DNA of 64,000 nt from Vermamoeba vermiformis (taxonomy: Eukaryota). Position numbers and translations under genes: made by a program. The notes below the pieces were generated by a model. That model saw nothing but the letters and a program-made list of their open reading frames with translations, was not told the origin of the DNA and made no database searches. Shown piece by piece: positions 988-64,000 of this stretch (position 1 is its first letter; the number at the start of each line of letters is the position of its first letter). The DNA lies in assembly GCA_045837725.1 (NCBI GenBank), contig JBEWZL010000003.1:496001-560000 (forward strand). The letters run 5' to 3'.

Positions 988-3900
988 TTATTTGCGACGG
1001 TACTGCGTGTCGCCGTCTTTCTTCGGGTTATTATTGTTGTCAGGGTGCGTCGTCTTTTGTCGCTTGTAATTCGGCTGTTGCTCGTTGTTCCTCTGACCTT
1101 CATTACCCCTGTGATAGTTGCCTCGATTGTTGTTTTGCCCATTGTTTCTCTGTTGACCTCGGGGCGGTGGAGTCTGCACTGTGTATTGTACAGGCTGTGG
1201 CTGCTGTGAATAGTTCGCATAGCCGTAGTTCTGGCCGTAAAACATTGGTTGCGCGTTAAACTGTGGTGGGAAGTTCGGATTAAAATAGGCATTTTGAGCA
1301 CCATATTGTGGATTTAATACAGGTGGCAGTGAATAGTTCTGCGACGGCTCGTACTGAATTTGTTGTTGCGGGAGCTGTTCAAGTTGCGCTTGTTCACCAG
1401 CGTTGCTAGTCTGTCCGTACCGCTGAGAATTATTCCGTTGATTGTTGTCGTAATTGCTGTTGTACTGCTGACGTCTATTGTTATAATAATCAGATCTGCC
1501 GCCTCTGTCCTGTTGGTCTCGTCGCTCATATCTATTGTTGTTACTATAGTCAGTTCTGACACTTCTGTCTTGCTGCTCTCGGCGTTCGTGTCGTGTGGTG
1601 TTTGAAGGGGGCTTGTACGTGGCCAAGTACTTGACAGGACTGGGCTCAAAGACGTCTTCATTCGACCAGTCAACCAAGAACACATTCGTCAGTTCAGGCG
1701 AGTCCACGTGATACACAATTGCCACAAAATACACGCTGGTGTCTCGCTCTACCTCCGCAATGTGTTTTCGTACTTTGAGCTGGTTGTCGCTGATTTCAAT
1801 TTGTCCGTTCCAGTCCTTTGCAAAGCCTTTGACTTCAAAGTAACATTTCTTCGCTTTTTTGTTTTGTGAGCGGTCTTGCGTGAATAATTGCAGCGTGTCA
1901 ATTAACACAAAATCATAGCCCGCCTTCTCGTTGATGTTGCTCGTGCTGTTCGGATACACCGCAGTGCGTGAGCCAGACACCCAGCTGACGTACGGATTGA
2001 ACGCTTGACCGTATTTGTTGGCGAGATAGGCGCAGAAGAACTTTTCAGCGTCATCACCGATACGTTTGGCATCTTGTGGCGTGAACATGTACGGCCGTTC
2101 ATCCGTGGTCAAGTGCGGGCACGAGAATAGATCGCTGCGTGCATCCAACGATTTGATGCGTTCAATCATGGCTGGATCTGACACCGCCAATGGACTCAGT
2201 ACGTCATCGAATGAAACAATCTGATTGCTGCCACTCGCGTCTTGTTCTACTCGTTGATTGTCGGCAAAGTAGTGGAAGTTCTGTGAGAGTGAGCCTTCAG
2301 CTGGTGTTGGGAACACAACGAGCTCCGTGTCAAACTCTTCGGGCTCACTCGACAGACTCTTCGACCACGCAATGTTTGAGTCAGCGGTGCACTCCTTCAG
2401 TGCCTTGAATGCGTGCTTCTGGGCCTCTTCTTCGCTCCACGTGACATTCTTGCGTAAGAGCATGTTTGTCAGCGCACTCGAGATGATTGACATGCGCGCG
2501 GAATGTGGCAGGGTCTTGACAGCGCAGTAGACGAGAGTGTCATCGCAAATCAGATAAGGAATGTCCGATTTGATCATCACTGACATGACGTCATTGCCAT
2601 CGATGACACCTGTCGTTGACAACGAGCGCAAATGTGAATAGACAATACTGCACGGAATGTATTTGACTGACAGCACTGTAATGTCTTGCTTTCCAAGTGC
2701 GTGCTGAAACGCTTCAGAGACTTGTTGTAGCTTGTATTCAATATTAGCGCCAGTGTGGCCCAACGTGACTACTGAGATTTGTTCAATGTACTGGACTTGC
2801 AGGGCTGTCATTGCGCGCGGACAGTTGATGGCAATGGTCGGGTGCACAAACGGCACTGGATCAACGTTAGACACGCTCTTGATGATGGGATCTTGCAAAC
2901 AGGAACGAATGTTCTTCGTGTCCTTTAAAAACACGAGTCGTTTGGAGTGCAGCGGAATGGGCAAGTTGCCTGACAGAGTGCCGGGCGAGCGATGAAGATT
3001 GCGCCACGTCCAGTTGTGCAAATAAAGAGGATTGTCTGGCTCGACAGTCTCGACAGCACCTTTCGTGGATAATTGTTCATGACGCTTCAATGCCATTTCG
3101 AGCAATTGATAGGTCGCGATGAAGTCCTCGAGGCCGTCATTTGACAGGAGTGACATTTCGCTTCCCACGGGCAAGAAGTACTTTTGATTCTTTGCCATTT
3201 CATTGAGTGCTGCACATATGTCTGCAACAGGTGGGAATGTGTGACTGCCAAGTGTTCGGAGGAGTGAAACGAATGGGAGATAGTTGTTGTTGGCATTTAA
3301 ATTGATGAGCGATTTGTTCAGTGTCTTGCACACAAGAGTGACGGCGCCGTTGTTGTTGTCAATGTTGCACAAATAAATATCTTGTGGTGCGGCAAATCGT
3401 TTGTCGTCGTCCAAGTACAGCAGCGGTTGACTGGCGTAAACAGAATCGACCTTGTCATTGCCCAAAGTGTTTTTGAGTCGCCACAGCCATTCAGTATACT
3501 TCTCAGTGTTTGTATTGTTAGTGCGCGCAAATGCTGTCAAAATCTCCAACGAGTTAGTGGCAGTGGTAGTGCTGCACACTCCAAGCATGTCTGCGACTTT
3601 GCAAGCGTGCGGCGGGACTTCAATCGAGGGCAAGGCATCGCGGAATACACTGGCATTGGCAACTTTTGAGATTGGCAACTGCGAGCCATCGCTGAGTTTG
3701 ACAATCATGTTGCGGATCAAAGGAGTCATAGGGCTGTCGTTGGAGTAGTACGTCAATATTTGCTGTCCAAAAGTAGCTGCTTGTTCGCTCCAGTTTGCCA
3801 ATGGATTGAGTTCGAGACTAGGTGCTGGTTTGATGCTGAGCAAGTTGACAGGAGGCACTGCATTCATTTCTAAGAAAAACCACTCCCAGTGCATGTCATC

Positions 3901-6900
3901 TTCAAGACTCTCAAACTTGCCTCCGTAAGGATAAGCAACAGAGGGCATGACATGCTTAGAGACATCAGTGGTTAACAATGTCGGCACTGTCAATGCTGAG
4001 AGGATCATTGGGACTTGAGTGCTTGACGGTACAAGCAGCACTAACTTCAATTTCTCGATCAGATCTTCGGTCAGTTCAAGCAAGTGGTCTCGAATGTAGG
4101 TCAAGTCCTGCCACAGCAAAGAGGTCTCTTCGGTAGTTTTGTTGATCGCAGCTTGTAGATGAATGTTGCTGAGCAATTCTACAACTCTTTGCGGGACTAG
4201 CGCTGTCAAATGTAATTGTCCTTCTAAGAGATGTTTTTCGCTGGATGACGTATAGCAAACAACATTGAAGTCATGTCTCCATGGTTTGATGATATTAGTG
4301 GCTGGTGACACGAAGCAGTATTGGTCGTTCATAGGCCCGCGTGTCTTGCCAAACAAAAATATGGGAGCTTGTTTGATCTTAGTCGCGTACTTGTCAATCG
4401 TGGTCAAAGGCAGTCCATTGAAAAGTTTGAACAGATTCTCCCACCACACTTCTGTTTGATTGTTTGCGTAGTCCTTGAATCCACTATGGTCGAAGCAGTC
4501 GAGTACATCGATAGCAGATAAGCGTCGGACATAGCTTGAAATCAATTTGATCTTCTCCGAGTTCAATTGCGCACTGTCCAACAGCTGCACATTGGAGTAC
4601 TGCTCGATGAGTCCAGCAGGCACAACGTCCAAGACTTTGTTGTCGGGCATCACGAGCTCTTTCTTGTTGTGACCCGAAGCATCGCTCGACAGCAGCTTCT
4701 TCAACCGCTCGTCCTTAAGTACTGCGTGCACGTTATCTACAAACAGACTCCACCAGCGAGACATGGCAGGGTTGTGCTCTGGAATGAATTCCCAAGCATG
4801 AGCGTAGATACTGGGATGATTCAATAGCGCCCATTTGAGCATCTCTGCAGCGGTGTCGCGAAGGTATCTGTTCCACGCTTTGTCTTGGATACTTTCTCGG
4901 TTAGTAACGAGTATCCAGTCGCATTGAAGCAAAAACTTGAAGCCAATGTCACTGACAGGCAGGTACGCGAAGATTGGGAATGTTTCGTCCTGTCGCAAGT
5001 CTTTCACGAGCGGGAATGCAAGCATTATGTTGGTCTCTGAAGCCCTTTGCTTATCTTCGGCGACAATGTCAGCGGGAACGTGTACATCCGCTTTGAGCAC
5101 GTGGAACTGTTGAGAACTGGTTTTAGACTTGTCGCTCTCGCTGATCGTGGTGGTGACACGAAGATCTTGTTGGTAGTTCTGAACGGTGAGAGCTCCAGCA
5201 GGAAGTGAGACAATATTGGACGGAACTGTGCACGAAACAACGGTATGTTGAGCATTGAGTCGATCGATTATCGTAATCTTCTTCAATTGCTTCAAGGTCA
5301 ACAAGACGTGCTTGTCGAGCGATCTGTAAACGTCGTCGTAGAACTCTCTGATATTGCTCTGAACGCGCTTCATCAAGGGCAAATAGATGAATGTTCGGTA
5401 CTCCTGATGTTTGAGCACTGCCTGGGACAGCTCAGGCGGGAACTGTTCTGAAGCTAGCCACAGCGGAGTGATGTACGCCATTTCATCCTTCTCGGGTGTC
5501 TTGTTGAAGCAGAATTGCCAAGGACCTGACACGATAATCGGCGCATTCGTAACAGAAAACACAGACTTGAAGCCTAGTCCTTTTTGACCGATGTGCGCTC
5601 CACCAGTCTTTGTGCTGACCGACAGATTGCATAGTGATTCAACGTCACGCGCCAAGAATCCGCACTCGTTACACGCAAACAGGATGCTGTCTTCATTGAG
5701 CGTAATCAACACACTTGGTGTGGTGCCAGTCGAGTACTGGTTGTCGTCTGCATTCTGAATCAGCTCGTTGATGAAGTGTGAGCTCAGCGAGTAAAGATCA
5801 GGTCCGAGTTGGCGCAGTGAGCCGCAGATTGTCTTGCGTAAGGTCTTCAAACTATCGCGCTTTTGTTTCAGGTTGTCGATGAACCTAAGCGCTGCTTCAG
5901 GTGACACTTCGGTTGGGTCGGTGATGTCGAGGAGAGGATCACGTTCTGGGCTTTGATCTTCAACTTGGGTCGATGACTCAATTACTGTGCTTGTTGAAAC
6001 CTTCACTACTTCGCTTGAGCTGTGTAATTGTGGTTTGATCAGCTCTGCTCTCAATCGTGCCAATTCAGCTTGTAACTGAGACTTTTCAGCGTCAGCTGCT
6101 TCCTTCAACTTCGTCATCTTTTCAAGCTGTTCAGCTAGTTCCACATTTTGTTGCTTCTGTTCGGCAAGTTGCAGAGTGACCTCCTCTCTCGACAGTCTAT
6201 CAAGTTCAGTCTTGAAAGCATCCTGTAAGGACTTCGTTGACATAAAATCACGTGCTGACGACGGTTTTTTCCACCTTTCTTCAAGATCTCTCCAAGATTG
6301 AAGTAGATCGATTAATTTGCTCTTTGTGTCAATTTGCATCGTATCCTCGACCTTGGACGTGTCTTCTTTCATATCCACCTTCTCCTTGTTTTCCTCGAGC
6401 TCACTTTCTTCGTCTTCTTCATCGCTGTCACCTCTGACGCTAAATATTTGGCTTCGTTGCGTCAACTTCAAGACTTGATTGAACAGCGCGACCACAATTC
6501 GAAGTACTCTATGATTGGCCTCTTCTTTGATAAGTTGGCTAATGCAAGAGGAAACATTCTCGAGCAGCGATTGCAAGTCAACCTCGGCTACTATTGCCCT
6601 GGTACCCCACTTCAGGATGGCATCAATACTGCCGTAGATATTGCCCGCAAATGAGGGGTAGTACTTGTTGGCTAAAGCAGCGTACCGAATCAGCTTGTTG
6701 ACATCGTTGCTCGAGAGGTCATTGCATAGATCATGCACACCATCGATCAACAGCTGTAGCACCAGAGCTACATCCCGGTTAGCAAACAGGGCAAGATATC
6801 GTTTTGCAATGGCGTTGTCTTCTTCTGATTGGGGTGTAAATGTCTCTATCAGCTCCATCGTAGAAAAGATAGTGTCACGAATGGCGTGTACAAAGGAGAA

Positions 6901-8106
6901 AGCGTTGTCTTGTCCCAATTTCTTTTCAAATTCTATCACTCGGTAGCTGTAACGCAAGTGATCATCTCGCAGTGCCCCACTCGCCAATGAACACCCATAC
7001 GTGCGTAGCATGAGGCTGCTCGTTGACAAAAGTGTTTGGGATAGCCTCCAGAACTCGTCAGTTTCGAACATCTCTGGTGCAAAGTACAAGTGATGCGCTG
7101 CATGCTTGATGACACGACAAAGTCCACATAGCAGGTACTCTTTGATGTCCTTTTGATCTTTAGCGGTCATATTCAACATGTTTGAGAATCGATCAGTCAT
7201 AACAGCCAGGTCACCGGGTGTAGAAGTTGGATTGGCTCGGTATTCCTCTGTCCATTTAATGGCGATCAAACAAAGTATCTGACAGTACTTGAGATAGTGT
7301 CCTTGCCAATGAGCTTTGCGAATCAGGATCACACGTTGCATTGCATTTTTCTCTTCGCGCCATGAAGCAGTACCAGCGATAACTCCGTAAAACAAGTGCA
7401 GCATTTGTTCTTGATCTTCAGCCGAGCCATTGGTCAGCACATTAATTGTCTGTTTGAGAAGTGCTTCCGCTCGCTTGTCTAACAACCTTTTTGATTGCTG
7501 AAGGATGCTGATTGCTTCACCTTTGTTTCTCTTTCGTTCAGGCTTGAGTGTCTGATTGACACGTGTCATCGCAGTCGTTGGATTGGGTCGTTTGTTGCTC
7601 TCGATGTCATCCATGATATAACTTATTAGCTCAGTTTGCGTAGAGAAGTCGTCGTCTGAACTGTCAGCAAACCAAATTCGAGAGAATAGTTGTGGATCTG
7701 CTTTCAAGTGGGCCAAGAATTCTTGTGCCCAGTCAATGTATGTTCGCCAGGCTTCAGAATATACCTCTGGCGCAGTTTTATCCAATAACGAGGCTTTGTG
7801 ACAAGTGTCTTCCTCGGACCAAAAGAAAACAATGCGGATCTGCTCGCTGCTTAATCCAAGAGATTTCAACTCTTCTACTGTGATCTTTGGTGAACATACA
7901 AATGGTTGTGTCTTTTCTATCGTGCAGGCATCTTCCCACTCAGCTTTGAGCGATTCCAAGTCCTCAATTCTGGCTGCAGACGTGGTGAAAAACGATGCAT
8001 GTTCATGATTGCGATGGTGCGGCAGTGAATAAGCCAATCGCCGTCGAGCCAAACTACATGGAGCACCAACTAATAGTACTAAACGAGGCTTCTTGTCGGA
8101 TTCCAT
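988..8106 (-). CDS. Intronless 2372-aa Sacsin/NO VEIN-like GHKL ATPase with a C-terminal DUF3883 (NOV C-terminal, restriction-endonuclease-like) domain and an N/Q/R-rich tail
   Basis: Single ORF. GHKL motifs HFINELIQNADDN, NECGF and STK..IGQKGLGFKSVF are present, plus PIFAYLPV...GFKFLLQCDWILVTNRESI typical of NOV-like proteins. The C-terminus has RIGDDAEKF...GYDF...YFEVKG...ISDNQ. Confidence 0.9.
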   Translation of the reverse strand: MESDKKPRLVLLVGAPCSLARRRLAYSLPHHRNHEHASFFTTSAARIEDLESLKAEWEDACTIEKTQPFVCSPKITVEELKSLGLSSEQIRIVFFWSEEDTCHKASLLDKTAPEVYSEAWRTYIDWAQEFLAHLKADPQLFSRIWFADSSDDDFSTQTELISYIMDDIESNKRPNPTTAMTRVNQTLKPERKRNKGEAISILQQSKRLLDKRAEALLKQTINVLTNGSAEDQEQMLHLFYGVIAGTASWREEKNAMQRVILIRKAHWQGHYLKYCQILCLIAIKWTEEYRANPTSTPGDLAVMTDRFSNMLNMTAKDQKDIKEYLLCGLCRVIKHAAHHLYFAPEMFETDEFWRLSQTLLSTSSLMLRTYGCSLASGALRDDHLRYSYRVIEFEKKLGQDNAFSFVHAIRDTIFSTMELIETFTPQSEEDNAIAKRYLALFANRDVALVLQLLIDGVHDLCNDLSSNDVNKLIRYAALANKYYPSFAGNIYGSIDAILKWGTRAIVAEVDLQSLLENVSSCISQLIKEEANHRVLRIVVALFNQVLKLTQRSQIFSVRGDSDEEDEESELEENKEKVDMKEDTSKVEDTMQIDTKSKLIDLLQSWRDLEERWKKPSSARDFMSTKSLQDAFKTELDRLSREEVTLQLAEQKQQNVELAEQLEKMTKLKEAADAEKSQLQAELARLRAELIKPQLHSSSEVVKVSTSTVIESSTQVEDQSPERDPLLDITDPTEVSPEAALRFIDNLKQKRDSLKTLRKTICGSLRQLGPDLYSLSSHFINELIQNADDNQYSTGTTPSVLITLNEDSILFACNECGFLARDVESLCNLSVSTKTGGAHIGQKGLGFKSVFSVTNAPIIVSGPWQFCFNKTPEKDEMAYITPLWLASEQFPPELSQAVLKHQEYRTFIYLPLMKRVQSNIREFYDDVYRSLDKHVLLTLKQLKKITIIDRLNAQHTVVSCTVPSNIVSLPAGALTVQNYQQDLRVTTTISESDKSKTSSQQFHVLKADVHVPADIVAEDKQRASETNIMLAFPLVKDLRQDETFPIFAYLPVSDIGFKFLLQCDWILVTNRESIQDKAWNRYLRDTAAEMLKWALLNHPSIYAHAWEFIPEHNPAMSRWWSLFVDNVHAVLKDERLKKLLSSDASGHNKKELVMPDNKVLDVVPAGLIEQYSNVQLLDSAQLNSEKIKLISSYVRRLSAIDVLDCFDHSGFKDYANNQTEVWWENLFKLFNGLPLTTIDKYATKIKQAPIFLFGKTRGPMNDQYCFVSPATNIIKPWRHDFNVVCYTSSSEKHLLEGQLHLTALVPQRVVELLSNIHLQAAINKTTEETSLLWQDLTYIRDHLLELTEDLIEKLKLVLLVPSSTQVPMILSALTVPTLLTTDVSKHVMPSVAYPYGGKFESLEDDMHWEWFFLEMNAVPPVNLLSIKPAPSLELNPLANWSEQAATFGQQILTYYSNDSPMTPLIRNMIVKLSDGSQLPISKVANASVFRDALPSIEVPPHACKVADMLGVCSTTTATNSLEILTAFARTNNTNTEKYTEWLWRLKNTLGNDKVDSVYASQPLLYLDDDKRFAAPQDIYLCNIDNNNGAVTLVCKTLNKSLINLNANNNYLPFVSLLRTLGSHTFPPVADICAALNEMAKNQKYFLPVGSEMSLLSNDGLEDFIATYQLLEMALKRHEQLSTKGAVETVEPDNPLYLHNWTWRNLHRSPGTLSGNLPIPLHSKRLVFLKDTKNIRSCLQDPIIKSVSNVDPVPFVHPTIAINCPRAMTALQVQYIEQISVVTLGHTGANIEYKLQQVSEAFQHALGKQDITVLSVKYIPCSIVYSHLRSLSTTGVIDGNDVMSVMIKSDIPYLICDDTLVYCAVKTLPHSARMSIISSALTNMLLRKNVTWSEEEAQKHAFKALKECTADSNIAWSKSLSSEPEEFDTELVVFPTPAEGSLSQNFHYFADNQRVEQDASGSNQIVSFDDVLSPLAVSDPAMIERIKSLDARSDLFSCPHLTTDERPYMFTPQDAKRIGDDAEKFFCAYLANKYGQAFNPYVSWVSGSRTAVYPNSTSNINEKAGYDFVLIDTLQLFTQDRSQNKKAKKCYFEVKGFAKDWNGQIEISDNQLKVRKHIAEVERDTSVYFVAIVYHVDSPELTNVFLVDWSNEDVFEPSPVKYLATYKPPSNTTRHERREQQDRSVRTDYSNNNRYERRDQQDRGGRSDYYNNRRQQYNSNYDNNQRNNSQRYGQTSNAGEQAQLEQLPQQQIQYEPSQNYSLPPVLNPQYGAQNAYFNPNFPPQFNAQPMFYGQNYGYANYSQQPQPVQYTVQTPPPRGQQRNNGQNNNRGNYHRGNEGQRNNEQQPNYKRQKTTHPDNNNNPKKDGDTQYRRK

Positions 8107-53425: not shown

Positions 53426-55976
53426 ATGCAGTACAAATTGCTTGCGTTATTATTTTGCGTCGCCGCTGCGTGGCAGTTCGCGGCTGCATTGCCCACTAAC
53501 CCGAATAAGGTTGTACCAATCTTCGTTGGGTTGAAACAACGAAATATTGACAAGCTGCACGTAAGAATTATCGATAATATTAGAGACATAATATTAATTG
53601 ATGTTTTTTCGCAGGAAATTGCGTTGTCTGTGAGCGATCCAGATTCCCCTCGTTACGGTACATTTTTCATTCTCATTTTTTTCTGACTCGCTTTATTATC
53701 GCCCATCAACTGCTAACGCATATTCTAGGCCAATTCTTGTCTAAAGAGGAAGTTCTTGAAATAGTAGCCCCTTCAAAGGAAGATCATGATCTCGTCGTTA
53801 ACTACTTTAGAGATTTAGGTACGCGTTATTTCTAATACACTATTCACGTAAAACGAGTACGTGCTCACTGTATTTCTGCAGGTTTCTCCGTTCAGTCGTT
53901 TGGCGATTCGCTCATCTTGCAAGCTCCCGTGAAGACGATCGAAAGTGCTTTGCAAACTACTATGGGCACGCTGGCCACTGCCAAACATTCTAGCGGTAGG
54001 CCTTACAATTTGTAAATAGGTTAATTAATTACAATTTCTAACGGCATTTGCACACGTACGTAGGCAAAACCTTGCACCGAACTTTCCCCACATCTACCTA
54101 CAAGATTGCCGACCACATTATGGATAAGATCGAAATCATCACCACGAACACCGGTGAGGCCAATATCAAGCGCCTTTCGGATTACCAGCCTAAGAGCAAG
54201 CGAGCGTAAGATTTTTAAACAATTGTATGGAATTTAATTTTGCTTACGTGCCTCGCAGCGCTGAACAACTGCAAAGCTTGCCCTCTGTCGTGCCTAAGAG
54301 CATTCGCATCAACTACGGCATCAACGGATCCTTCGACACTGCCACCAATCCTAAAACAACGCAATTGGTCGTCGAATTCAATCACGAAGCCATGCCTCAA
54401 GACAGCGACATTCAAGGCTTCGTTCAAGCCGCCAAAGAAAAGTACTCGAACTGGACTCAGATCTACGGTGGCTACGGACCTGTTGGCGTCGGTGATTTGC
54501 GCGAGTCTACTTTGGACTTTGAGTACATTATGACCGTTGGTCGCGGAGGTAATTACTTTGAATCAATTATCGACGGCTTCTTAACGAACTGCAATGCACA
54601 GCTCAAAACTGGTGGATGTACATTAAAGGCTGGATGATGGAGTTTGCCGTGGCATTGAATGCCTTGAAGACCACACCGCTCGTCGTGTCCATTTCTTGGG
54701 GGTGGGCTGAATCTGATCAGTGCAATATTATGGAGACTGGGTACGTCGCACGACCTACTATCACCATGCGTAATTGCTAATCGATAAACTCGGACACAGT
54801 ACTGACTGCAAGGGCTTCGACACGTACGCGTACATCACTCGTGTCAACAACGAATTCGCTAAGCTCGCTGCTCGCGGTAAGTCACTATCGTCATTTTGTA
54901 CGTTTATCGTGCTGATCTCCTGCAGGTGTGTCGATCCTCGCTGGTTCTGGAGACGCTGGTGCCGCTGGTCCGTTGAATCCGAACTGCGAGAACAGCATTC
55001 CTCCTCGTACGTACATTATCGCGCGCTTGACTCGTTTACTGGTTAACTTGTTATGCACGCACTATAGTCTATCCTATGTTCCCTGCCTCGTCTCCTTGGG
55101 TCACTTCAGTTGGTGCTGTGACTTGGACCGGCAACAAGCCTGGCTGGATGCCACCGATGAGCCAAGAGATCTCGTTTTCAGATAAGAAGCGCCAAGTTAT
55201 TCCTCCTCCGTTGTGCAATGTTTTCCCTCAAATGCAGTGCGCATTCGCTCCTCAAATTGAAGTTGTAGCTTCTGCAGGCAACACTTATTTGCAGTTCACT
55301 AGCGGTGGTGGTTTCAGCAACAAAACTCCTCAGCCCTCGTGGCAAGCTAGCGCTGTTACTGGCTACTTGAACACGCCTGCAATCATGTTGCCTCCTGCTG
55401 GCTCGTTCAATCCCAAAAACCGCGCTTATCCTGACATTGCCGCTGTTGGTAAGAATGATCTGAGAGCAGGACATGCCAGAGTCTAATCAATTTCTGCCAG
55501 GTGCTCGCTTTTTGACACTGATCATGGAGTTCCCTACTATTGAAGAAGGTACCAGTGCCTCCACTCCCGTATTTGCGGCAATGGTTTCCTTGATGAACGA
55601 TGCTCGTCTCAACAACAAAAAGAGTCCTTTGGGCTTCTTGGTGAGTCCAGTGCACTGCAATTGTATTTAGCAACTGATCTCTAATTAATTAGAACCCACT
55701 GCTTTACAAATTGGCCAAATCCAATCCCCAAGTTTTTAATGGTATGTTTGAGCACTTTGGAAATTAATTCTCACTTCAAATGTTCAGATATCACTGTTGG
55801 TGACAATAGATGTGCCATTCAACTGTGTTGCCCATCAGGTTATGGTGCCACCACTGGTTGGGATGCTGCTGTAAGTAAATTGGATAGTAAGGTTAATAGA
55901 AATCTAATATTTGTAGTCTGGCCTTGGTACTCCTAATTTCCCTGAGTTGTTAAAGGCAGTGCTAAAGGTAGCCTAA
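53426..55976 (+). CDS. Sedolisin / tripeptidyl-peptidase I-like serine-carboxyl peptidase (S53) with pro-kumamolisin prodomain, multi-exon
   Basis: Signal peptide, VSDPDSPRYG, ESTLDFEY, SWG, SGDAG, FPASSPWVTSVG, SGGGFS, RAYPDIAA, GTSASTP, LGFLNPLLY, DITVGDN and GWDAASGLGTPNF. Confidence 0.93.
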
Positions 55977-56399
55977 GCATAAAGACATATGGGCTAACAA
56001 ATGTTCAAAACAATAAAATTTTAAACTCCTATCTCTTGTGTTCTTTCTTTCAGTAATATGGCAGCTGGGTTTTTCTGATCTAACCTCAGAAATTACAGGA
56101 CAGACTTTTGTCCTGTCTCTCTTTGGCTCTTGCCTCATGCATTTCAGCAAGTTGACCAGAAAACAGGGGTTGAAAATAAATTGTTGCAGCTCATTCTCAT
56201 TTGTCTCTGCCAGTGTGAGCACCTAGGGGAAAGCTCTGCCATTTGTTTTAGTTTGCTCAACAGATTTGCCTATGTTGATGGTTCTATTCCTGGGTTGGTT
56301 CCTGTCATCATCAAACCTGTTTCAACACCTGTGCTTGTGCAAGTCTGGAAACAAGAGCTCTTTGTTGCCCTTTTAATGCTCCAGAGTAGCACTGATTGC

Positions 56400-57031
56400 A
56401 GCTTTTAAATCTGTTTCAGGTACTTGTCTTTCATGCTTCCAACCTCTGCTTGTAGTAACAAATAACTCACCCATTGTAAAAGAGATTTTAGATTCTAAAA
56501 GTTAGTTTTTTGGCAGCCATTATAACATAACTTTTGGGTGTTACAAGCCCCAGGGACTCTGCAGCAAGTCAGAGCTCAGACAAATCCAGTGTAAGCCAGG
56601 ACTAAGGCAGTAAATCCTTTTCATGGCTGTTTATGTGGAGAATGAGAGGTAATTTTGATTAAATATTTTAATTTTTACTAATTATTATTTTAGAAAATAT
56701 GCTGGTCTACTCATGCACAGACACAGCTTTAGGTGCCATGAATGCTGTAGCAGCCAAAGTAGATTACTGCTAGAGGTCATTAGTCTTGAAGGCACTCACA
56801 TACTCACCTTGGTAAAAGAGTACTTCCTCAAGTTCTTATCAACTAGAGCAAGCAAACTGTGATAAACTTCAATGTGCTGCACTTTCCTTTAGTGAATGTG
56901 AGCTCTTTGCCAATTGTGTTAGCCACAACAACAACTCTAAGCCCTTGTATTTCCAGCCTGGGGCCCTCACAGTCCTGCAGGAATACTTCCCACCTGCTGC
57001 TATGGTAGGCTTCTGGGTTATAGAAATTTAA
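56400..57031 (+). pseudogene. Possible decayed coding remnant inside the CpG-free block
   Basis: An intron-like segment at ~56649-56693 is followed by a ~110-codon frame (NMLVYSC...GFWVIEI) interrupted by TAG and TAA stops. No homolog recognised. Confidence 0.2.
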
Positions 57032-57475
57032 GGGTTATAGAGTTTAAAGTCCAGTTAACCCTTTTTGTTAAACTTTTGACTTTTTTGGCCTTTTTGCCAT
57101 CATTTTTTCATTGATGTTGTGCTTACTTGCCGGATTGCTTACTTGCCAAAATTTTTTGCCAAGTAAAACGAACAAGCACAATTAATCGTGCTTGTAATAT
57201 TTATTTTTGTGCGCACAGTATTTCCCGTTTTACACGATAACTTTGCAAAAAGCTGAAATCCATTCCAGATTTTGCAAGATTTTTCCCCAGTGATTTTGCT
57301 ACGCAAATTTGGTAAGCAAAGAAGAAAAGAAATTATAAGTAAATAACCATCATATTTCCGAAGTGCAAAATAAATTACTTATATAGGGTCTAGGGTTATA
57401 TATCACGTTGGGGTTAGCATTTTACAGTTTTTTTGTAGCCAAGGGTGAATTTTTTTATGCCTTGGCAACTTCACA

Positions 57476-57727
57476 CCCATCCGCACAGCATGGACGCCCA
57501 TCCGCACAGCAGGGACACCTGTCCACACTGCACGGACGCCCATCCGCACAGCACGGACGCCCATCCGCACAGCACGGATGCCTGTCCGCACAGCACGGAC
57601 ACCTGTCCACACAGCAGGGACGCCCATCCACACAGCACGGACGCCCGTCCGCACAGCATGGATGCCTGTCCGCACAGCAGGGACAGCTGTCTGCACAGCA
57701 CGGATGCCCATCCGCACAGCAGGGAAA
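57476..57727. repeat. Minisatellite of 12 x 21 bp, consensus CCCGTCCGCACAGCACGGACG
   Basis: Twelve head-to-tail units read directly, the first at 57476 and the last at 57707. The consensus contains the internal inverted repeat CGTCCG-N7-CGGACG. Confidence 0.97.
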
Positions 57728-57786
57728 ATACCATCACAAAATGAAGTCTGCAGTTGTTGCAAAAATGCATATAAACAAAAGTGATG

Positions 57787-57877
57787 CAAGGTGTCCATGG
57801 CTTTGCAGATACCTGATGACATGAGGGGGATTTGACTCCATCATTAAGAAGGTATCTGCAAAGCCATGGACACCTTG
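57787..57877. repeat. Perfect 28-bp inverted repeat with a 35-nt loop (hairpin)
   Basis: CAAGGTGTCCATGGCTTTGCAGATACCT (57787-57814) is the exact reverse complement of AGGTATCTGCAAAGCCATGGACACCTTG (57850-57877). Confidence 0.95.
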
Positions 57878-57932
57878 ACATGCTTTGAGAAAACTAAGTT
57901 AAGTTTAGCAAATTATAAAGGCCAAAGATATT

Positions 57933-59440
57933 CTAATCAGGAGAATTTATGTAATCAAACTGTTTTAACAAGTATATTTTGATTAAAATTGTGTGTGATA
58001 AAAGGGGGCAAGATTGGCTTGCATCAAAATTTGAGCAATCATCCACAAGCAGAATAGACTTTTGTTGGAGCAAAGCAAGCCAGAGTTTGTCAAGGGCTTT
58101 AGGAGAGCAATACAGCAAATACCAATAATAAGGCAAAATGTAATAGTGGAGAGCAGCTTCAGATTGCGATAACATAAAGCCAGGTTGATCTAGCTAGAAA
58201 TATTGTTAAAAAAAAGCAATAAATTCCAACAACATACCTTCAACCAATGTTTGCAATCAACAAACTGAGTGTCCATTAAGGGATTGACATGGGAGGTCAA
58301 TTTCACCATGTCAAAACCCATTGCATCAGCTTTTAGAGCTTCATAAATGCTCATTACTGACTGTGCAAATAAGCTACTGAAGGATACCTGCAAAAAGAAT
58401 TACTATTAATTCTTATTATTAACATTACTACATACTGGGATGTGTGTATTTGAAGACAAGTAATTTGGTTGCAGCTCTTTGAACTCGTCATTGCTCCTGG
58501 ACAATTAGAGTTAGAGGTTAATTGACACTCAGACATGAGCTTACCAAGCTAAGTCAAAAATTTGCAAAGACATGCCCAAAGTACTCTTTAATTGACTGAT
58601 GTATTGCAAATTCTTTCTGCTACAACATAAAATTCTGTTGCTGAAATTTGATCCTGGATCCTGTTCTTGGAGATAAGGAATTTCTGTGCATGGCATTAGT
58701 ATGGCTGTATAACTAAAAAGGAATTATACCTTTAATGCTTGGAGTTTGTGCAAAGACTTGCGAGGCGACTGGCTGAAATGATTTTATTAAAATTACATTC
58801 GCACTCAAACAACACAAAACAAACCATTAGTGCTTTGAGTTTGCTTGTTGTACTTTGAATCTCATTGCCGGGTTGGCCCGGTAAACAATTTAGTGGTGCT
58901 TCAGATCGGCAATTACAGTCTTCCAAATGACCCGTGCAAGTAACAGGATGAATATGGGAATGCATCCTCTGGTAGTGCAACAAATTATTATCCCTAAGAC
59001 ATCCAACCAGTAAGTTAAAAGCGCTTTTTTGTGGATCGTAACTTACGTGTATTGCTGCCCAGCAGTTTTTGCTGCTTTTAAAATAATAATTTAATATTTT
59101 TGTGTTTAAGCAAGTGAATTTTTTATGCGCAGGATTAATAACGAGGATGTAATTAAGCGAGTAGTTAATTGGTTTTTTTTTTTCATTAAAAATATTGTTA
59201 AAATTTAAAAATATGCTAAATTATACTAATTTTACCTTGAAAAGCATTTGAAAACGGGTTCGTAAACATTAGCTACCGTGGATGACAAGTGATTGCGCGT
59301 TTCTGTGGGCTGTGGTGTTTTGTCAGCAATGTAGGAGGTTAAATTGGTAAATCACTTACCCGCCAGACGCGTTTTTACGGAATTCGAGTTATTTACGGAA
59401 TCTTGTCTCCGATGACACGTAATTCCGTCAAATTTTGACA
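57933..59440 (-). pseudogene. Possible degraded intron-containing gene remnant
   Basis: A series of minus-strand donor sites (CTTAC/ATAC on +, e.g. ~58235, 58540, 59043, 59355) separates exon-like blocks with short open frames. No coherent product could be assembled. Confidence 0.2.
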
Positions 59441-59829
59441 TTTTTATTGCTGCGTATCTTTCAGCAAGATTACCACAAGTCTTTGCATAGTAAAAAAAAT
59501 TACACGTAATAATTTTATACGCACGATTTATAATTTGAGCGCGAAAGCAATGCTCAGATAAGTCCTTGATCGGATTTATTTTTTTTAAAAAAATCATTAT
59601 TTATGGCTTATTACCTTTTAATAATTCAATATAATATGTAACAATTTTAATTGTATTTTTTAAACAGTGCCCGGAATTTTAAGACCCTGTTCTTCTACAT
59701 CGACGCAGATCGTCTCAAAATCAAGGCCACGAGCAAGGCGTTGCAGAAATTGCACTCACCACAATTCGTACACGCTGCTTGCATAAAAACGGTAAACTCG
59801 TGGGGCCCGAATTGAATTTTTTTTGAGTC

Positions 59830-59887
59830 GACTCAAACTTTTGGTCGGAATTTCTGACCAGCGCAGGTTCAACTCCTGGCGTCCGCA
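59830..59887 (+). other. tRNA-Leu(CAA)-like 3' fragment (pseudo-tRNA or SINE-like remnant)
   Basis: GACTCAAA..TGGTC, a variable-arm-like stem (GGTCGGAA/TTCTGACC), a T-arm/B-box GCAGGTTCAACTCCTG and an acceptor-like CGTCCGCA. No 5' half (D-arm) is present. Confidence 0.35.
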
Positions 59888-60427
59888 GCATTTTATTTTT
59901 GTTTTTTTTGAGTCGACTCAAACACTTAGCACTGCCTCTGCTATTATTAATAAATGTAAAGGTGACTTGATTTTATCCCGTGCCTGCAATCCATTTACTA
60001 GATATTGTCGTGACAAGTAGCGCGATCTAAATCTAACACGGCACATTGATTGCATCGGTAAGTTTAAACTATAGATTATCAAAAGTAATAATATAATGTA
60101 TTAATTCCGTTTTTATAGGTTTAGCATGAGGCTGACTTAGTGGATCGGTGGAGGGATCTGACGCGCTGAATTGTCACGATAGTCGAAGATTCAAGGCCCG
60201 TAAGTAATATTCGATGATTGTGCTATATAGTGACTAAAATAATATGACAGTAGATTGGCTAAATTTGCTAAAGTGTTGAAGAAATGCGATCCGCAACTTG
60301 ACTGGATTCGCGAACCAATTATCAGTGTTGTGGTAAATAGGTAAGTTTATTTACGTTTTAATATTATAAATATACAATTACTAACTCCTTAGTATTGTTA
60401 GAGTTAATGCGTGATTGCTTTAGTCTT

Positions 60428-62433
60428 GATCCCCGCGGGGCCCAAATAAAAATGAATGAAATGATGAGGATAAGAGAATGAAATTTCATTGTTAATTCTA
60501 ATCAATGAATGTTAATTGGTACACGAATGCTTTAAATCAATAGAAGAATGAAGGATGTCATTCTTCATCATTGGTATACTAATCAATGTAAAGTAACAGC
60601 AACGCGTGCTTTAAATCCGGGATAGTCGCGCTAACGCGCGTAAAGCCCATCGTTTTTCGCATCAAAAAGAGCATAAAGAACGCGATTTGGATCTAGTCGC
60701 GCTCCGCGCGCGTTCTTTCTGGGGATCAATCCCCGCAGGGGGTAGGTTTGAAAAAGTGAATGAAAATTGAATTGATTTGATTGTGATGATGATGATGATG
60801 GTGATGATGATCATCATTGCAATGGTATCAATGACTGTTAACTGGTACACGTACGCTTTAAGCACGGGATAATCACGCTAACGCGCGTAATTCCCATCAT
60901 TTTGCACGTAAAAAAGAGCAAAAAGATCGATATTTGGATCTAATAGCGCTCCGCGCACTCTTTTCCGGGGATCAATCCCCGCAGGGGGTAACTTATGAAG
61001 AAAATCAGTGAAATTTGAGATTAGTTGATGATGATGACAATGATGATAATGATGGTGATGATTATGATGATGATGATGATGATCATGAGAAGGATGATAA
61101 TGATGATGTGACAATGTCGTGCAAAAAGAGCATTAAGAACGGAATTGAGAGCAAAGTAAAAGCCAAACAAAAAGAACGCTAGTGCAGTTCTGGGGATTGA
61201 TCCCCGCAGGGGGTAACTTTAAAGAAAATGAATGAAAATTGAAATTAGATGATATGATGATGATGACAATGATGATGATCGTGAATATGAGAACGATGAT
61301 GATGATGATGTGATGATGTGTCGTAAAAAAGAGCAGAAAGAACGGCATTGAGAGCAAGTAAAAGCCGAACAAAAAGAACGCTCATGTAGTTCCAGGGATC
61401 GATCCCCGCAGGGGGTAAGTTTAAAGAAAATGAATGAAAATTGCAATTAGTTGATGATGATGATGTAATGATGATGCAGTGATGATGATCATCCTGAGGA
61501 TGATGATGATGATGATGAAGACAAGATGATGATCATGGCAATGATGATGATATGGTTGAACGAATCAAGAGCATAAAGAATGTACTTGGAGCTAACAACG
61601 AAGAGCGTAAAGAATGGTACCGAAAGCAAGTAAATGCCGAACAAAAAGACCGCGCTTGTAGTAACAGGGCTGCTTTCCCCGCAGGGGGTAGGTTACGAAG
61701 AAATTCAATGATACTTGAAATAATTCAATGATGATGATGATGGTAATGTGATGATGATGATGTGATGATGATATGGAGTGATGATGATATGGTGTGAGTG
61801 ACTTGATAACAAAACAGCAAATCAAGGATGGAAATAAAAAAACAAAGAGCATAAAGAATGTAGTTGGAGCTAACAAAGAAGAGCGTTAAGAAGGTAATTG
61901 GGAGCTAAAAAAGGCCGAACAAAAAGAACGCTAGTGTAGTACCGGGGATCGATCCCCGCAGGGGGTAGTTTAAAAAAAAATGATAAAAATTGTAGGATAA
62001 TTTGATAATGATGATAAGGATGATAATGATGAAGTGATGACGTGGTGCACAAGAGCATAAAGAATGTAGTTGGAGCTAACAAAGAAGAGTGTTAAGAAGG
62101 TAATTGGGAGCTAAAAAAGGCCGAACAAAAAAGAGCGCGCGTGTAGTTCCGGGGCTGCTTTCCCTGCAGGGGGTAGTTCACAGAGAAATGACAAATATTG
62201 AAGAGTTTTAATGATGATGATCATGTGATGATGAAAATGTAATGATGAAGATGATTATCATGAAAATGATGATATGGTGTGAGTCAATTAATGGCAAAAC
62301 AGTTAGCGGATGATGAAAAATTGACAAACAAAGAGCATAAAGAATGTGGTTGGAGCTAATGAAAAAGAGTGTTAAGAATGCTATTGAGAGCTAAGTAAAG
62401 CCGAGCAAAAAGAACACGCGCGTAGTTCCGGGG
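60428..62433. repeat. Complex tandem array of 7 full and 2 partial units of ~200-280 bp with a conserved palindromic core and variable (GAT)n tracts
   Basis: The core CCC(C/T)GCAGGGGGTA occurs at 60731, 60977, 61202, 61404, 61677, 61954 and 62162. It is preceded by AAAGAGCATAAAGAA...GCCGAACAAAAAGAACGC...GTAGTTCCGGGGATCGAT and followed by an AAATGAATGAAAATTG-like segment plus degenerate GATGAT tracts. Confidence 0.95.
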
Positions 62434-64000
62434 TTATACGATGGGCATGAAACGCTCAGGATTGATGCGAAAACCATGCCCAAAAAATCGTGGCAAAAAA
62501 TCGAAGCAAAATAGCCAAAAAAGAACATGAACATTGATTTTTGAAGAATTTATTGCAGGAACAGATAGATTAAACAGAGATCTATCTATTGAATATAGGG
62601 TCGCGATATTATTTGATAAGGTAAGGTAGTTATCGCGATAATCCCGGGTGGGCACGACCATGCCCAAGATCGCGAAGTTTGCATAATTAATTTGGATTTA
62701 TTTAATTTTGATAAATTTCGTTAGTAGGTGCCTACTAACAACGTGTGGAGTGGTTGGTTTTTTTTTCGAAAACGTTGATAGTCATAGAACGTCGCGGAGA
62801 TCTGACAACTCGGATTGCGTCAGCTTTGGAGAAATTAATGGCTAATAATGGCTAAATAACCCGTAAGTACCAGTAATTTATCAATAGTTTATTTTTACTC
62901 GCGGTTCTAAGTCCGATCTCGAAGTTCGAACGGATTTAAATCCGCGAGATCACCGAAATTCTCTTAAATTAATTCATGAAACAATGTTAACAATATTAAT
63001 AAGCATTAATATATTATGATGAAGCGATTCTTACTCACTGACAATTCCGGTAGCGGATACGAACTTGTCACTAAAAATAGAACGACGAGAGATCGACCAC
63101 AAGGGTCGAATTGTTTACTTTTTATTGATGATTTACAGCAGACAGTTACGCGCCACGGCACCAGAGCCGTTTCAGCGCGAGTTATTTGCGACGATCCCCG
63201 ATGCGATTTTGGATTTACAATAGTTCGATCACAAGGGACGAATTATTGTATTAATTATAGATATTATTGTTAGTCAACACGCGCACAACGATAATCAGCG
63301 TCGTTGCAGCGCGACATGCAAGTCAGCAATTTGTCGCGTCTAAATCTCGGAACTGTGACCGAGATCTTAAAAGGTAATAATTTTCTGGTGACTCTTCCAC
63401 CAATTATAATATATGGAAATCGTTGATTGAATTATTGATTTTTCAATTAAAAAATTAAAGATCCGGATTAGAGCTTAGTGCTCGAATTTTATCCGGATTT
63501 TTAACGAAATACTATGTAATTATATTTAAGACATCGTTATAATATTTATTTTTCATTACAGTAATGAATGGAAAAACGCGCGCGCGATCGAAAGTTTTAT
63601 TGACTTTCGTATTGCCGGATCTAGACCACCAATGGTCGTTTCAGTGCATGCTCATGCTTTTCGTTCGTGTCCCGCGTTGGAGGTCTTCTCAGTGCTCGCT
63701 CATGGACTAGGCAACTTGTTGGCGAGATCGGATGCGTTGGCCGCATCGAAATATTCCGTAAGTAATTACGTAAGAATAATAACAATCAATATGACGCAAT
63801 AAATGCGTCTTTTTGAAATTTAAAAATCAAGGAAAATTTTTTTAAATCAGAGAAATCGGATCGAGCTTCGTGCTCGTGCAAAATTTAAATAATTGTTTAA
63901 TTTATTATTAATACGATATACTAATGATTATTTGATAGGTTATTTGAGCGTCAGTACGAAGACGATGGTTCTAGATCGAGCGCGAAGTAGATCGCTCGAT

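Follow-up and report, generated by a model that had tools for sequence, protein, structure and literature searches.

A nearly CpG-free island over two intact convergent genes of Vermamoeba vermiformis suggests a long-lived domain of CpG methylation

How can a stretch of DNA lose essentially all of its CG dinucleotides while the genes that it covers remain intact? This question is raised by contig JBEWZL010000003.1 of Vermamoeba vermiformis (assembly GCA_045837725.1), of which we analyzed positions 496,001 to 560,000 of the forward strand; these 64,000 bp are referred to as the window, and positions are counted from its first letter. An initial annotation, made by eye from the sequence, had reported an abrupt CpG-free domain of about 1.5 kb that invades the 3' end of an S53 peptidase gene. 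We found that this domain belongs to a ~3.15-kb island (55607-58760) with shores of 200-500 bp, and that the depletion covers a complete second intact gene, which was absent from the annotation. The explanation that we consider rather probable is that the island was CpG-methylated for a long time, and that deamination of 5-methylcytosine (5mC) drove CpG extinct there under purifying selection; we infer 5mC as the cause, as well as the type of mark and its targeting, from the sequence. The parts of the island and its shores are as follows, with dinucleotide frequencies given as ratios of observed to expected counts (o/e).

55068-55606, unstranded: left shore of ~540 bp with partial CpG depletion (21 CGs, CpG o/e 0.63)
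55607-57130, unstranded: CG-free block 1, 0 CG in 1,524 bp (TpG 1.31, CpA 1.37, GpC 1.32)
57131-57475, unstranded: AT-rich spacer, GC content 0.34, not CpG-depleted (9 CGs, CpG o/e 0.93)
57476-57727, unstranded: tandem array of ~12 copies of a 21-bp unit, ~250 bp, found by repeat detection
57714-58760, unstranded: CG-poor block 2, 2 CGs in 1,047 bp (TpG 1.46, CpA 1.47, GpC 1.60)
58761-58999, unstranded: right shore, in which CGs resume, judged from o/e values in 200-bp bins

The depletion stands out from a window that is otherwise rich in CG, as the annotation had described it: there are 3,236 CG dinucleotides at a GC content of 0.436, and CpG o/e is 1.06 overall and 1.39-1.51 in non-coding flanks. 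Block 1 contains no CG where base composition predicts 59.0 (Poisson P ~2e-26), and the CGs that bound it, at 55605 and 57131, are separated by 1,526 bp, the longest such spacing in the window. Block 2 contains 2 CGs where 33.8 are expected, and the spacings ranked second to fourth (454, 319, and 275 bp) all lie within 57713-58761, while outside 55605-58761 the longest CG-to-CG spacing is 188 bp. The longest CG-free gap in 200 first-order Markov simulations of the window had a mean of 161 bp and a maximum of 238 bp. With CpG o/e values of 0.00 and 0.06, the two blocks are therefore far below background and outside the simulations. The counts made by eye, none in 55607-57130 and about two in 57728-58755, proved accurate, the latter being exactly two (58167 and 58486). 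The description of the domain as abrupt holds for the steepness of its borders but not for their shape, since they are graded rather than vertical. On the left, CpG o/e falls from 1.31 in 53426-55067 to 0.63 in the shore; on the right, 200-bp bins give 0.35 (58600) and 0.57 (58800), followed by 1.45-2.1 from 59000 on.

Elsewhere in the window, CpG o/e of non-coding DNA is generally above 1.2 and ranges from 1.3 to 2.3 in intergenic DNA. The AT-rich interval 62501-64000 (GC 0.36-0.39) is the opposite extreme to the island, with CpG o/e of 1.8-2.3. A mild dip, far from CG-free, is seen at positions 1-500 (GC 0.57, inside an open reading frame (ORF) that runs off the window start), where CpG o/e is 0.48 and TpG 1.75.

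What replaced the missing CGs can be read from the other dinucleotides. Block 1 has a TpG o/e of 1.31 and a CpA o/e of 1.37, and block 2 has 1.46 and 1.47; the raised values as a whole span 1.26-1.47, compared with 0.84-1.11 in non-coding flanks. GpC o/e stays at 1.32-1.60 and TpA o/e is 0.69-0.72. Since the increases in TG and CA are about equal, both strands were affected. All four NCG contexts are missing from the blocks, not TCG alone. When every CG in 10.4 kb of non-coding DNA of the same window was randomly changed in silico to TG or CA, the converted DNA had TG/CA at 1.51, TA at 0.74, GC at 1.39, and CC/GG at ~1.0, near the values of both blocks, so the island DNA looks native. An excess of TpG and CpA, which the annotation had named as a check on its reading, is thus present on both strands, together with a CpG-specific loss that leaves GpC untouched. 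Of the two kinds of process that the annotation had offered for this footprint, 5mC deamination agrees with the CpG-specific loss, the gain of TG and CA, the match to converted flanks, and the decay of the tandem array described below.

The other process, repeat-induced point mutation (RIP), fared less well. RIP is indicated by TpA/ApT above 0.89 and (CpA+TpG)/(ApC+GpT) below 1.03. In the blocks, TpA/ApT is 1.01-1.03 (block 1) and 0.74 (block 2), with TpA o/e unchanged relative to the converted background, and (CpA+TpG)/(ApC+GpT) is 1.46-1.80. Canonical, Neurospora-type RIP is therefore not supported, given this index, TpA no higher than conversion predicts, the lack of a duplicate in the window, and two intact reading frames.

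The first of these frames belongs to the S53 peptidase, a sedolisin or TPP1-like enzyme, whose 3' end and downstream DNA make up block 1.

53426-55976, plus strand: S53 peptidase gene, 14 exons, 13 GT-AG introns of 46-71 nt, 607 aa, from a spliced model built against protein P0122
55693-55741, 55788-55870, and 55917-55976, plus strand: last three S53 exons of the spliced model, CG-free, as are the two introns between them
55977-57130, unstranded: non-coding part of block 1 (S53 3' untranslated region and intergenic DNA), with no recognisable gene or transposon

The template P0122 is a full-length relative reached via the cluster of the best match. The model aligns with it end to end, with 491 of 611 aligned columns identical, and its frame is intact to a stop at 55974-55976, so the annotation was right that the depletion covers the last exons of a gene that is still open. 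In P0122, which is 80% identical, the Pro-kuma_activ domain (PF09286) is found above the cut-off (E 3.4e-21), and the protein matches the structure of human TPP1 (3EE6; E 1.7e-56) and that of kumamolisin (E 3e-15), with matches reaching residue 606-607 of 609; the window's own exon matches PF09286 weakly, below the cut-off (E 0.0024). On the basis of the domain and structure matches of P0122, the gene is an S53 peptidase and its CG-free exons encode part of the catalytic domain. The translation also contains a GTSAS stretch, a candidate for the serine motif of the S53 family. Spliced RNA reads support two of the junctions (54549-54601 and 55007-55067). A metagenome scan for orthologous DNA returned a single distant locus (L001, 38% identity).

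Within this gene, upstream exons contain 2.2-13 CGs per 100 bp, and 33 CGs are spread over the 531 bp of the first nine introns, compared with 0 CG in the last three exons and the last four introns, among them the intron directly upstream of those exons (55641-55692). When the last 74 codons were resampled synonymously with the upstream usage of the gene itself, 11.0±2.3 CGs were expected where there are none, and fewer than 2 occurred in 0 of 200,000 resamples. Where the next codon starts with G, a codon ends in C in 0 of 22 cases inside the block and in 58 of 170 upstream. Despite this purge, conservation of the CG-free C-terminus is no lower than upstream: 62 of its 74 residues are the same in P0122, versus 429 of 533 in the remaining protein. 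The choice of arginine codons is illustrative: the last CG at the left edge (55605) belongs to an Arg CGT codon in which either transition would alter the residue, and the sole arginine in the block portion is encoded by AGA, while 13 of the 14 Arg codons upstream of the edge CGT are CGN. The introns inside the island resemble the upstream introns in size and signals, and one of their positions is common to the relative P0001.

Most RNA reads on 54255-55509 of the S53 gene either differ from it consistently or align just to short conserved stretches, and loose read ends at 54679, 54711, and 55114 likewise point to S53 paralogues. Evidently, other S53 paralogues are transcribed in the species and this copy is barely covered.

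The second frame lies on the opposite strand in block 2 and is followed by a perfect inverted repeat.

58696-58545, 58496-58436, 58387-58238, and 58193-57933, minus strand: orphan gene, 4 exons, 207 aa, frame open across the model
57787-57877, unstranded: perfect inverted repeat (arms of 28 nt, loop of 35 nt) that begins 56 nt past the stop codon of the orphan gene

The orphan gene has GT-AG introns of 48, 48, and 44 nt and a predicted start codon, and its coding sequence lies wholly within block 2. Codon resampling predicts 23.1±3.7 CGs for this sequence, and none of 20,000 resamples had fewer than 10; the actual count is 2. No Pfam family matched the gene, and a search of 1.84 billion representative proteins with its last exon found exactly one relative (P0126, E 1.4e-24, 65% identity), a match that identifies it as a real, lineage-restricted gene. 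A search of viral contigs with the last exon found no relative, only an 8-residue pattern match in L002. The S53 and orphan genes are convergent, and the CG-poor zone spans their 3' ends and the DNA between them. Folded as RNA, the inverted repeat reaches -63.4 kcal/mol (z -12.1), and 0 of 200 shuffles fold as well; candidate identities are a hairpin RNA, a terminator, and an element resembling a miniature inverted-repeat transposable element.

The tandem array between the genes offers a view of the process before completion. One position pair reads CA in 6 units, TG in 5, and CG in 1. If this pair is taken as a fourth CpG site of the unit, 20 of 48 unit-sites are CG, 23 are TG or CA, and 5 are other, while the remaining 13 positions of the 12 units show only 2 differences in 156. 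Not all of these changes are independent, as mutated units can be copied. The array is nevertheless direct internal evidence of a strong CpG-specific transition bias, in which decay has gone part-way.

Sequence depth is raised over the array region 57379-57701 in both DNA data sets described below (1,200-1,595 in X1, up to 10.7 in X3), and an X3 contig that matches this region is flanked on both sides by other sequence, on one side with TTAGGG-like units; the 21-bp array is probably present at other loci as well. The motif GGGTTA occurs 4 times in 57015-57411 and 10 times in the window, and 57015-57411 contains no telomere-like array. The window's only tRNA call by ARAGORN, a 93-nt tRNA-Gln at 57533-57625, falls wholly inside the tandem array, and we set it aside as a likely false positive.

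What might have drawn a silencing mark to this site? The annotation had proposed that a genome-defence system acted on an adjacent repeat region and spread from there into the host gene. Our searches of the island did not bear this out. None of the 23 ORFs of at least 35 aa in 55940-57480 matched at the Pfam cut-off, the single sub-threshold match being spurious, and of 14 further ORFs in and around the blocks none of the 8 within them did so either; the sub-threshold matches among the ORFs in and around the blocks were to unrelated families (DUF6939, E 0.0054; DurN; IFNGR1_D2; a frog peptide). Self-BLAST found no second copy of either block in the window, only chance matches of 17-20 nt and, as an exception, the 28-nt-arm inverted repeat of block 2 matching itself. 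DNA depth over the blocks in X1 is not raised. The sole repeat of the locus, the 250-bp array, is less depleted than its surroundings. Ancient relics that are no longer recognisable would escape these searches for repeats and transposons. No DNA methyltransferase was seen among the window ORFs scanned. A home-made coding scan based on codon log-odds did not separate known exons from intergenic controls and was dropped.

The island was compared with two sets of DNA contigs, one from run X1, which is possibly the source of the assembly, and one from X3, a water metagenome of another study. X1 contigs reproduce 55075-57404 and 57891-58862 with 0-1 differences. X3 contigs cover 55286-56041, 56376-56529, 57213-57363, and 57831-59095 with 0-4 differences each, so parts of both blocks are present in an independent sample, and none of the X3 differences listed and checked creates a CG inside the blocks. 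The agreement of X1 and X3 argues that the depletion is no assembly or sequencing artefact, an explanation that we regard as very improbable: nothing was found in its favour beyond a change in depth at 55950 as the sole irregularity, and the coding frames and splice sites are coherent. Of the 12 strain or contig differences listed and checked, 3 are CpG transitions at or near the island. At 55577, in the left shore, X3 reads A, a synonymous change from GCG to GCA; at 57496, the transition lies within the array; and at 59321, X1 has CG where the window has TG.

Transcription of the locus may be weak. Two RNA runs with the same species label have almost no reads on 55510-59023 (depth 0.07-0.41 in three bins), and depth on the S53 gene is at most ~3, largely from reads with paralogue-like differences. 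These uncalibrated values hint that expression of the locus is low.

Taken together, these observations would fit the following course of events. The island would have kept dense symmetric CpG methylation throughout a long period of evolution, in a genome whose remainder is unmethylated and rich in CpG. As its 5mC deaminated spontaneously, CG would have become TG on one strand and CA on the other, to the point where virtually no CpG was left, and purifying selection would have filtered each mutation individually, rejecting those that altered a protein. In this way, the last 370 bp of the S53 gene and the whole orphan coding sequence would have lost their synonymous and non-coding CGs while keeping their frames, splice sites, and conserved residues. 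The 21-bp array, being younger or subject to turnover, would be partway through the same decay, and the AT-rich spacer may be a younger insertion or a protected, unmethylated piece resembling a promoter. Long-lived methylation of this kind explains the CpG specificity of the loss, the gain of TG and CA, the native composition, the graded shores, the purged but intact genes, the arginine codon at the edge, and the half-decayed array. As to the type of mark, we lean slightly towards a repressive one of the facultative-heterochromatin kind, rather than gene-body methylation linked to transcription.

Several points weigh against this explanation. An o/e of 0-0.06 requires CpG to decay at least ~50 times faster than it is created, or a very long time. 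Heavily methylated vertebrate genomes have an equilibrium CpG o/e of ~0.2, which is less extreme than the value in the island. The 345-bp spacer inside the island is undepleted, which calls for an additional assumption. The completeness of the purge and the undepleted spacer thus need a very high rate of CpG decay and a younger spacer, or another process. Neither Pfam searches of the ORFs nor self-BLAST within the window found a transposon or repeat that would explain why this site was targeted. Finally, the DNA data are uneven over block 1. X1 depth is 300 over most of this block, compared with 976 over block 2 and ~540-900 in the flanks; the X1 contig covering 55951-57034 has a depth of 300, versus 633 for the adjoining 55075-55949, and another X1 contig joins at 57000 from a different upstream sequence that contains CGs. 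X1 also holds two versions of 57029-57404, with depths of 251 and 526, which differ by a TCT insertion at 57061. The ~1.05 kb of non-coding DNA in block 1 may therefore be haplotype-specific or structurally polymorphic, with a history of its own. X1 depth is full over block 2 and over the first 345 bp of block 1, where the S53 exons and introns lie.

Other explanations must be weighed against these same observations. One is an enzyme-driven episode of CpG hypermutation: an earlier duplication, or the array, would have set off a burst of RIP-like or deaminase activity that acted in one or a few events. It would make the complete removal of CG (0 of ~59 expected) easier to understand than a mutational equilibrium does, a tandem array does lie at the center of the island, and CpG-targeted (TpCpG) RIP-like hypermutation has been reported in basidiomycete transposons, according to the portions of that work used here (PMC3318451). 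A burst, however, would also have struck non-synonymous CpGs, and two genes keep their frames, splice sites, and conserved residues. Moreover, the presumed trigger is itself the least depleted part, with 20 of 48 sites left; neither a duplicate of either block in the window nor raised DNA depth is seen; every NCG context is gone; and the (CpA+TpG)/(ApC+GpT) index lies above the threshold of RIP. We consider such a burst unlikely.

A second possibility is that the CG-free DNA arrived already depleted, through insertion, introgression, or gene conversion, and that a mobile element, a virus, or a divergent haplotype was the donor. The halved depth of the contig covering 55951-57034 and the join at 57000 from CG-containing sequence both speak for it, as at least 1 kb of block 1 may be carried by some haplotypes only. 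The remainder of the island is harder to reconcile with an import: block 1 begins with 345 bp of native S53 exon and intron sequence, whose introns are like those upstream and include the position common to P0001, and block 2 contains a gene of host style, with GT-AG introns of 44-48 nt. The composition of the blocks equals that of converted local DNA, no transposon protein domain was found in the scanned ORFs, and viral contigs contain neither a relative of the last orphan exon, beyond the 8-residue pattern, nor any exact copy of the hairpin arm or of two array units. An import as the source of the island is thus doubtful, to about the same degree as a burst.

Comparably improbable, in our estimation, is a more specific form of the methylation hypothesis, in which RNA from the convergent genes or from the hairpin with its 28-bp stem, rather than a transposon, would have nucleated a heritable, sharply bounded, methylated domain of facultative heterochromatin, through a system resembling RNA-directed DNA methylation in an unsampled protist lineage. 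If it were true, CpG mutability in the domain would be at least ~50-fold above the rate of CpG creation, possibly with a difference between haplotypes.

Selection might instead exclude CpG: if unmethylated, CpG-rich DNA marks the promoters of the genome, a CG-free zone at convergent 3' ends could serve to avoid cryptic antisense initiation or the binding of CpG readers. The island is located exactly where two genes converge, and the unusually CpG-rich intergenic DNA of the window (o/e 1.3-2.3) suggests a function for CpG. It is implausible, however, that selection would purge every synonymous and intronic CG over 2.5 kb; in addition, the CpG sites of the array decay to TG or CA in a neutral-looking manner, and the gain of TG and CA fits simple mutation. 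This explanation therefore ranks somewhat below the import and burst scenarios, and we give it little weight.

Long-lived CpG methylation, the explanation that we favor, can be set beside systems in which methylation or targeted mutation shapes CpG content. In invertebrates with mosaic methylation and bimodal CpG o/e, and in CpG-depleted vertebrates, methylated compartments lose CpG to TpG and CpA, and unmethylated ones keep an o/e near or above 1. The island resembles this pattern, as CpG is lost to TpG and CpA inside it and kept elsewhere. It differs in degree, since depletion in those animals is partial (o/e ~0.2-0.5), compared with 0-0.06 in the island, whose edges are a few hundred bp wide.

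Among protists, Acanthamoeba castellanii and Cyanophora paradoxa have, according to the passages on which we draw (Sarre et al. 2025, PMC12344493), mostly unmethylated genomes with sparse, repressive CpG-methylated regions (1.3% methylated CG in Acanthamoeba). Silenced genes and young transposons are where these regions are found, and heterochromatin marks occur at the same places. A CpG-rich genome with a silent or near-silent locus would fit this description. Unlike those regions, the island is known from its mutational scar alone, and these passages do not describe CpG extinction; it also lies on unique, intact, conserved genes, and no transposon or viral gene was detected in it. In Cryptococcus neoformans, as far as the excerpts used here go, Dnmt5 performs maintenance-only methylation of symmetric CG sites in discrete domains, with inheritance of the mark over millions of years (Catania et al., bioRxiv 10.1101/149385). 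Persistence of this sort is what driving CpG to extinction in the island would require. However, the domains described there are transposon-rich centromeric and subtelomeric repeats, and the island is 3 kb of unique sequence over two genes. Fungal RIP and the TpCpG hypermutation of basidiomycetes, to the extent covered by the sections cited (Horns et al. 2012, PMC3318451; RIPCAL, PMC2621366), share with the island C-to-T and G-to-A changes on a defined segment beside a repeat. In contrast to these processes, the island has no duplicated substrate in the window, was hit in all CpG contexts rather than at CpA or TCG only, preserves its coding frames, and has a (CpA+TpG)/(ApC+GpT) index outside the range of RIP.

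Some features of the window lie apart from the island. The minus strand holds an intronless, stop-free frame of 2,372 aa (988-8106) with a sacsin domain (E 1e-9), which is unusual given that its neighbours have many short introns. At 61026-62273, TGA/GAT/ATG microsatellites are found inside higher-order repeats of 202-206 bp (~2 copies each), with GC skew up to +0.44. Two identical 22-nt motifs, each with a 16-nt palindrome, lie 85 bp apart at 59817-59838 and 59902-59923, and poly-T loose ends of RNA reads at 59575 and 59891 may mark nearby polyadenylation sites of transcripts from the minus strand. Rfam gave 0 matches over the whole window, homology searches found no named protein that is closely related, and the Atlas matches were limited to generic PI-kinase clusters.

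How CpG decays has been understood for decades, and the island is a known kind of signal, not a new mechanism or system. What is unusual here is the completeness and sharpness of the loss and its position over two intact, unique genes. If the methylation hypothesis is correct, a poorly sampled, intron-rich microbial eukaryote would have, or would long have had, CpG methylation; this methylation would be limited to islands that are small and stable, with edges that take up a few hundred bp, and it could persist over unique, still functional genes, beyond transposons. CG-extinct blocks would then be a cheap marker of ancient methylated domains in unannotated protist genomes and would help to choose loci for methylome, small-RNA, and chromatin experiments.

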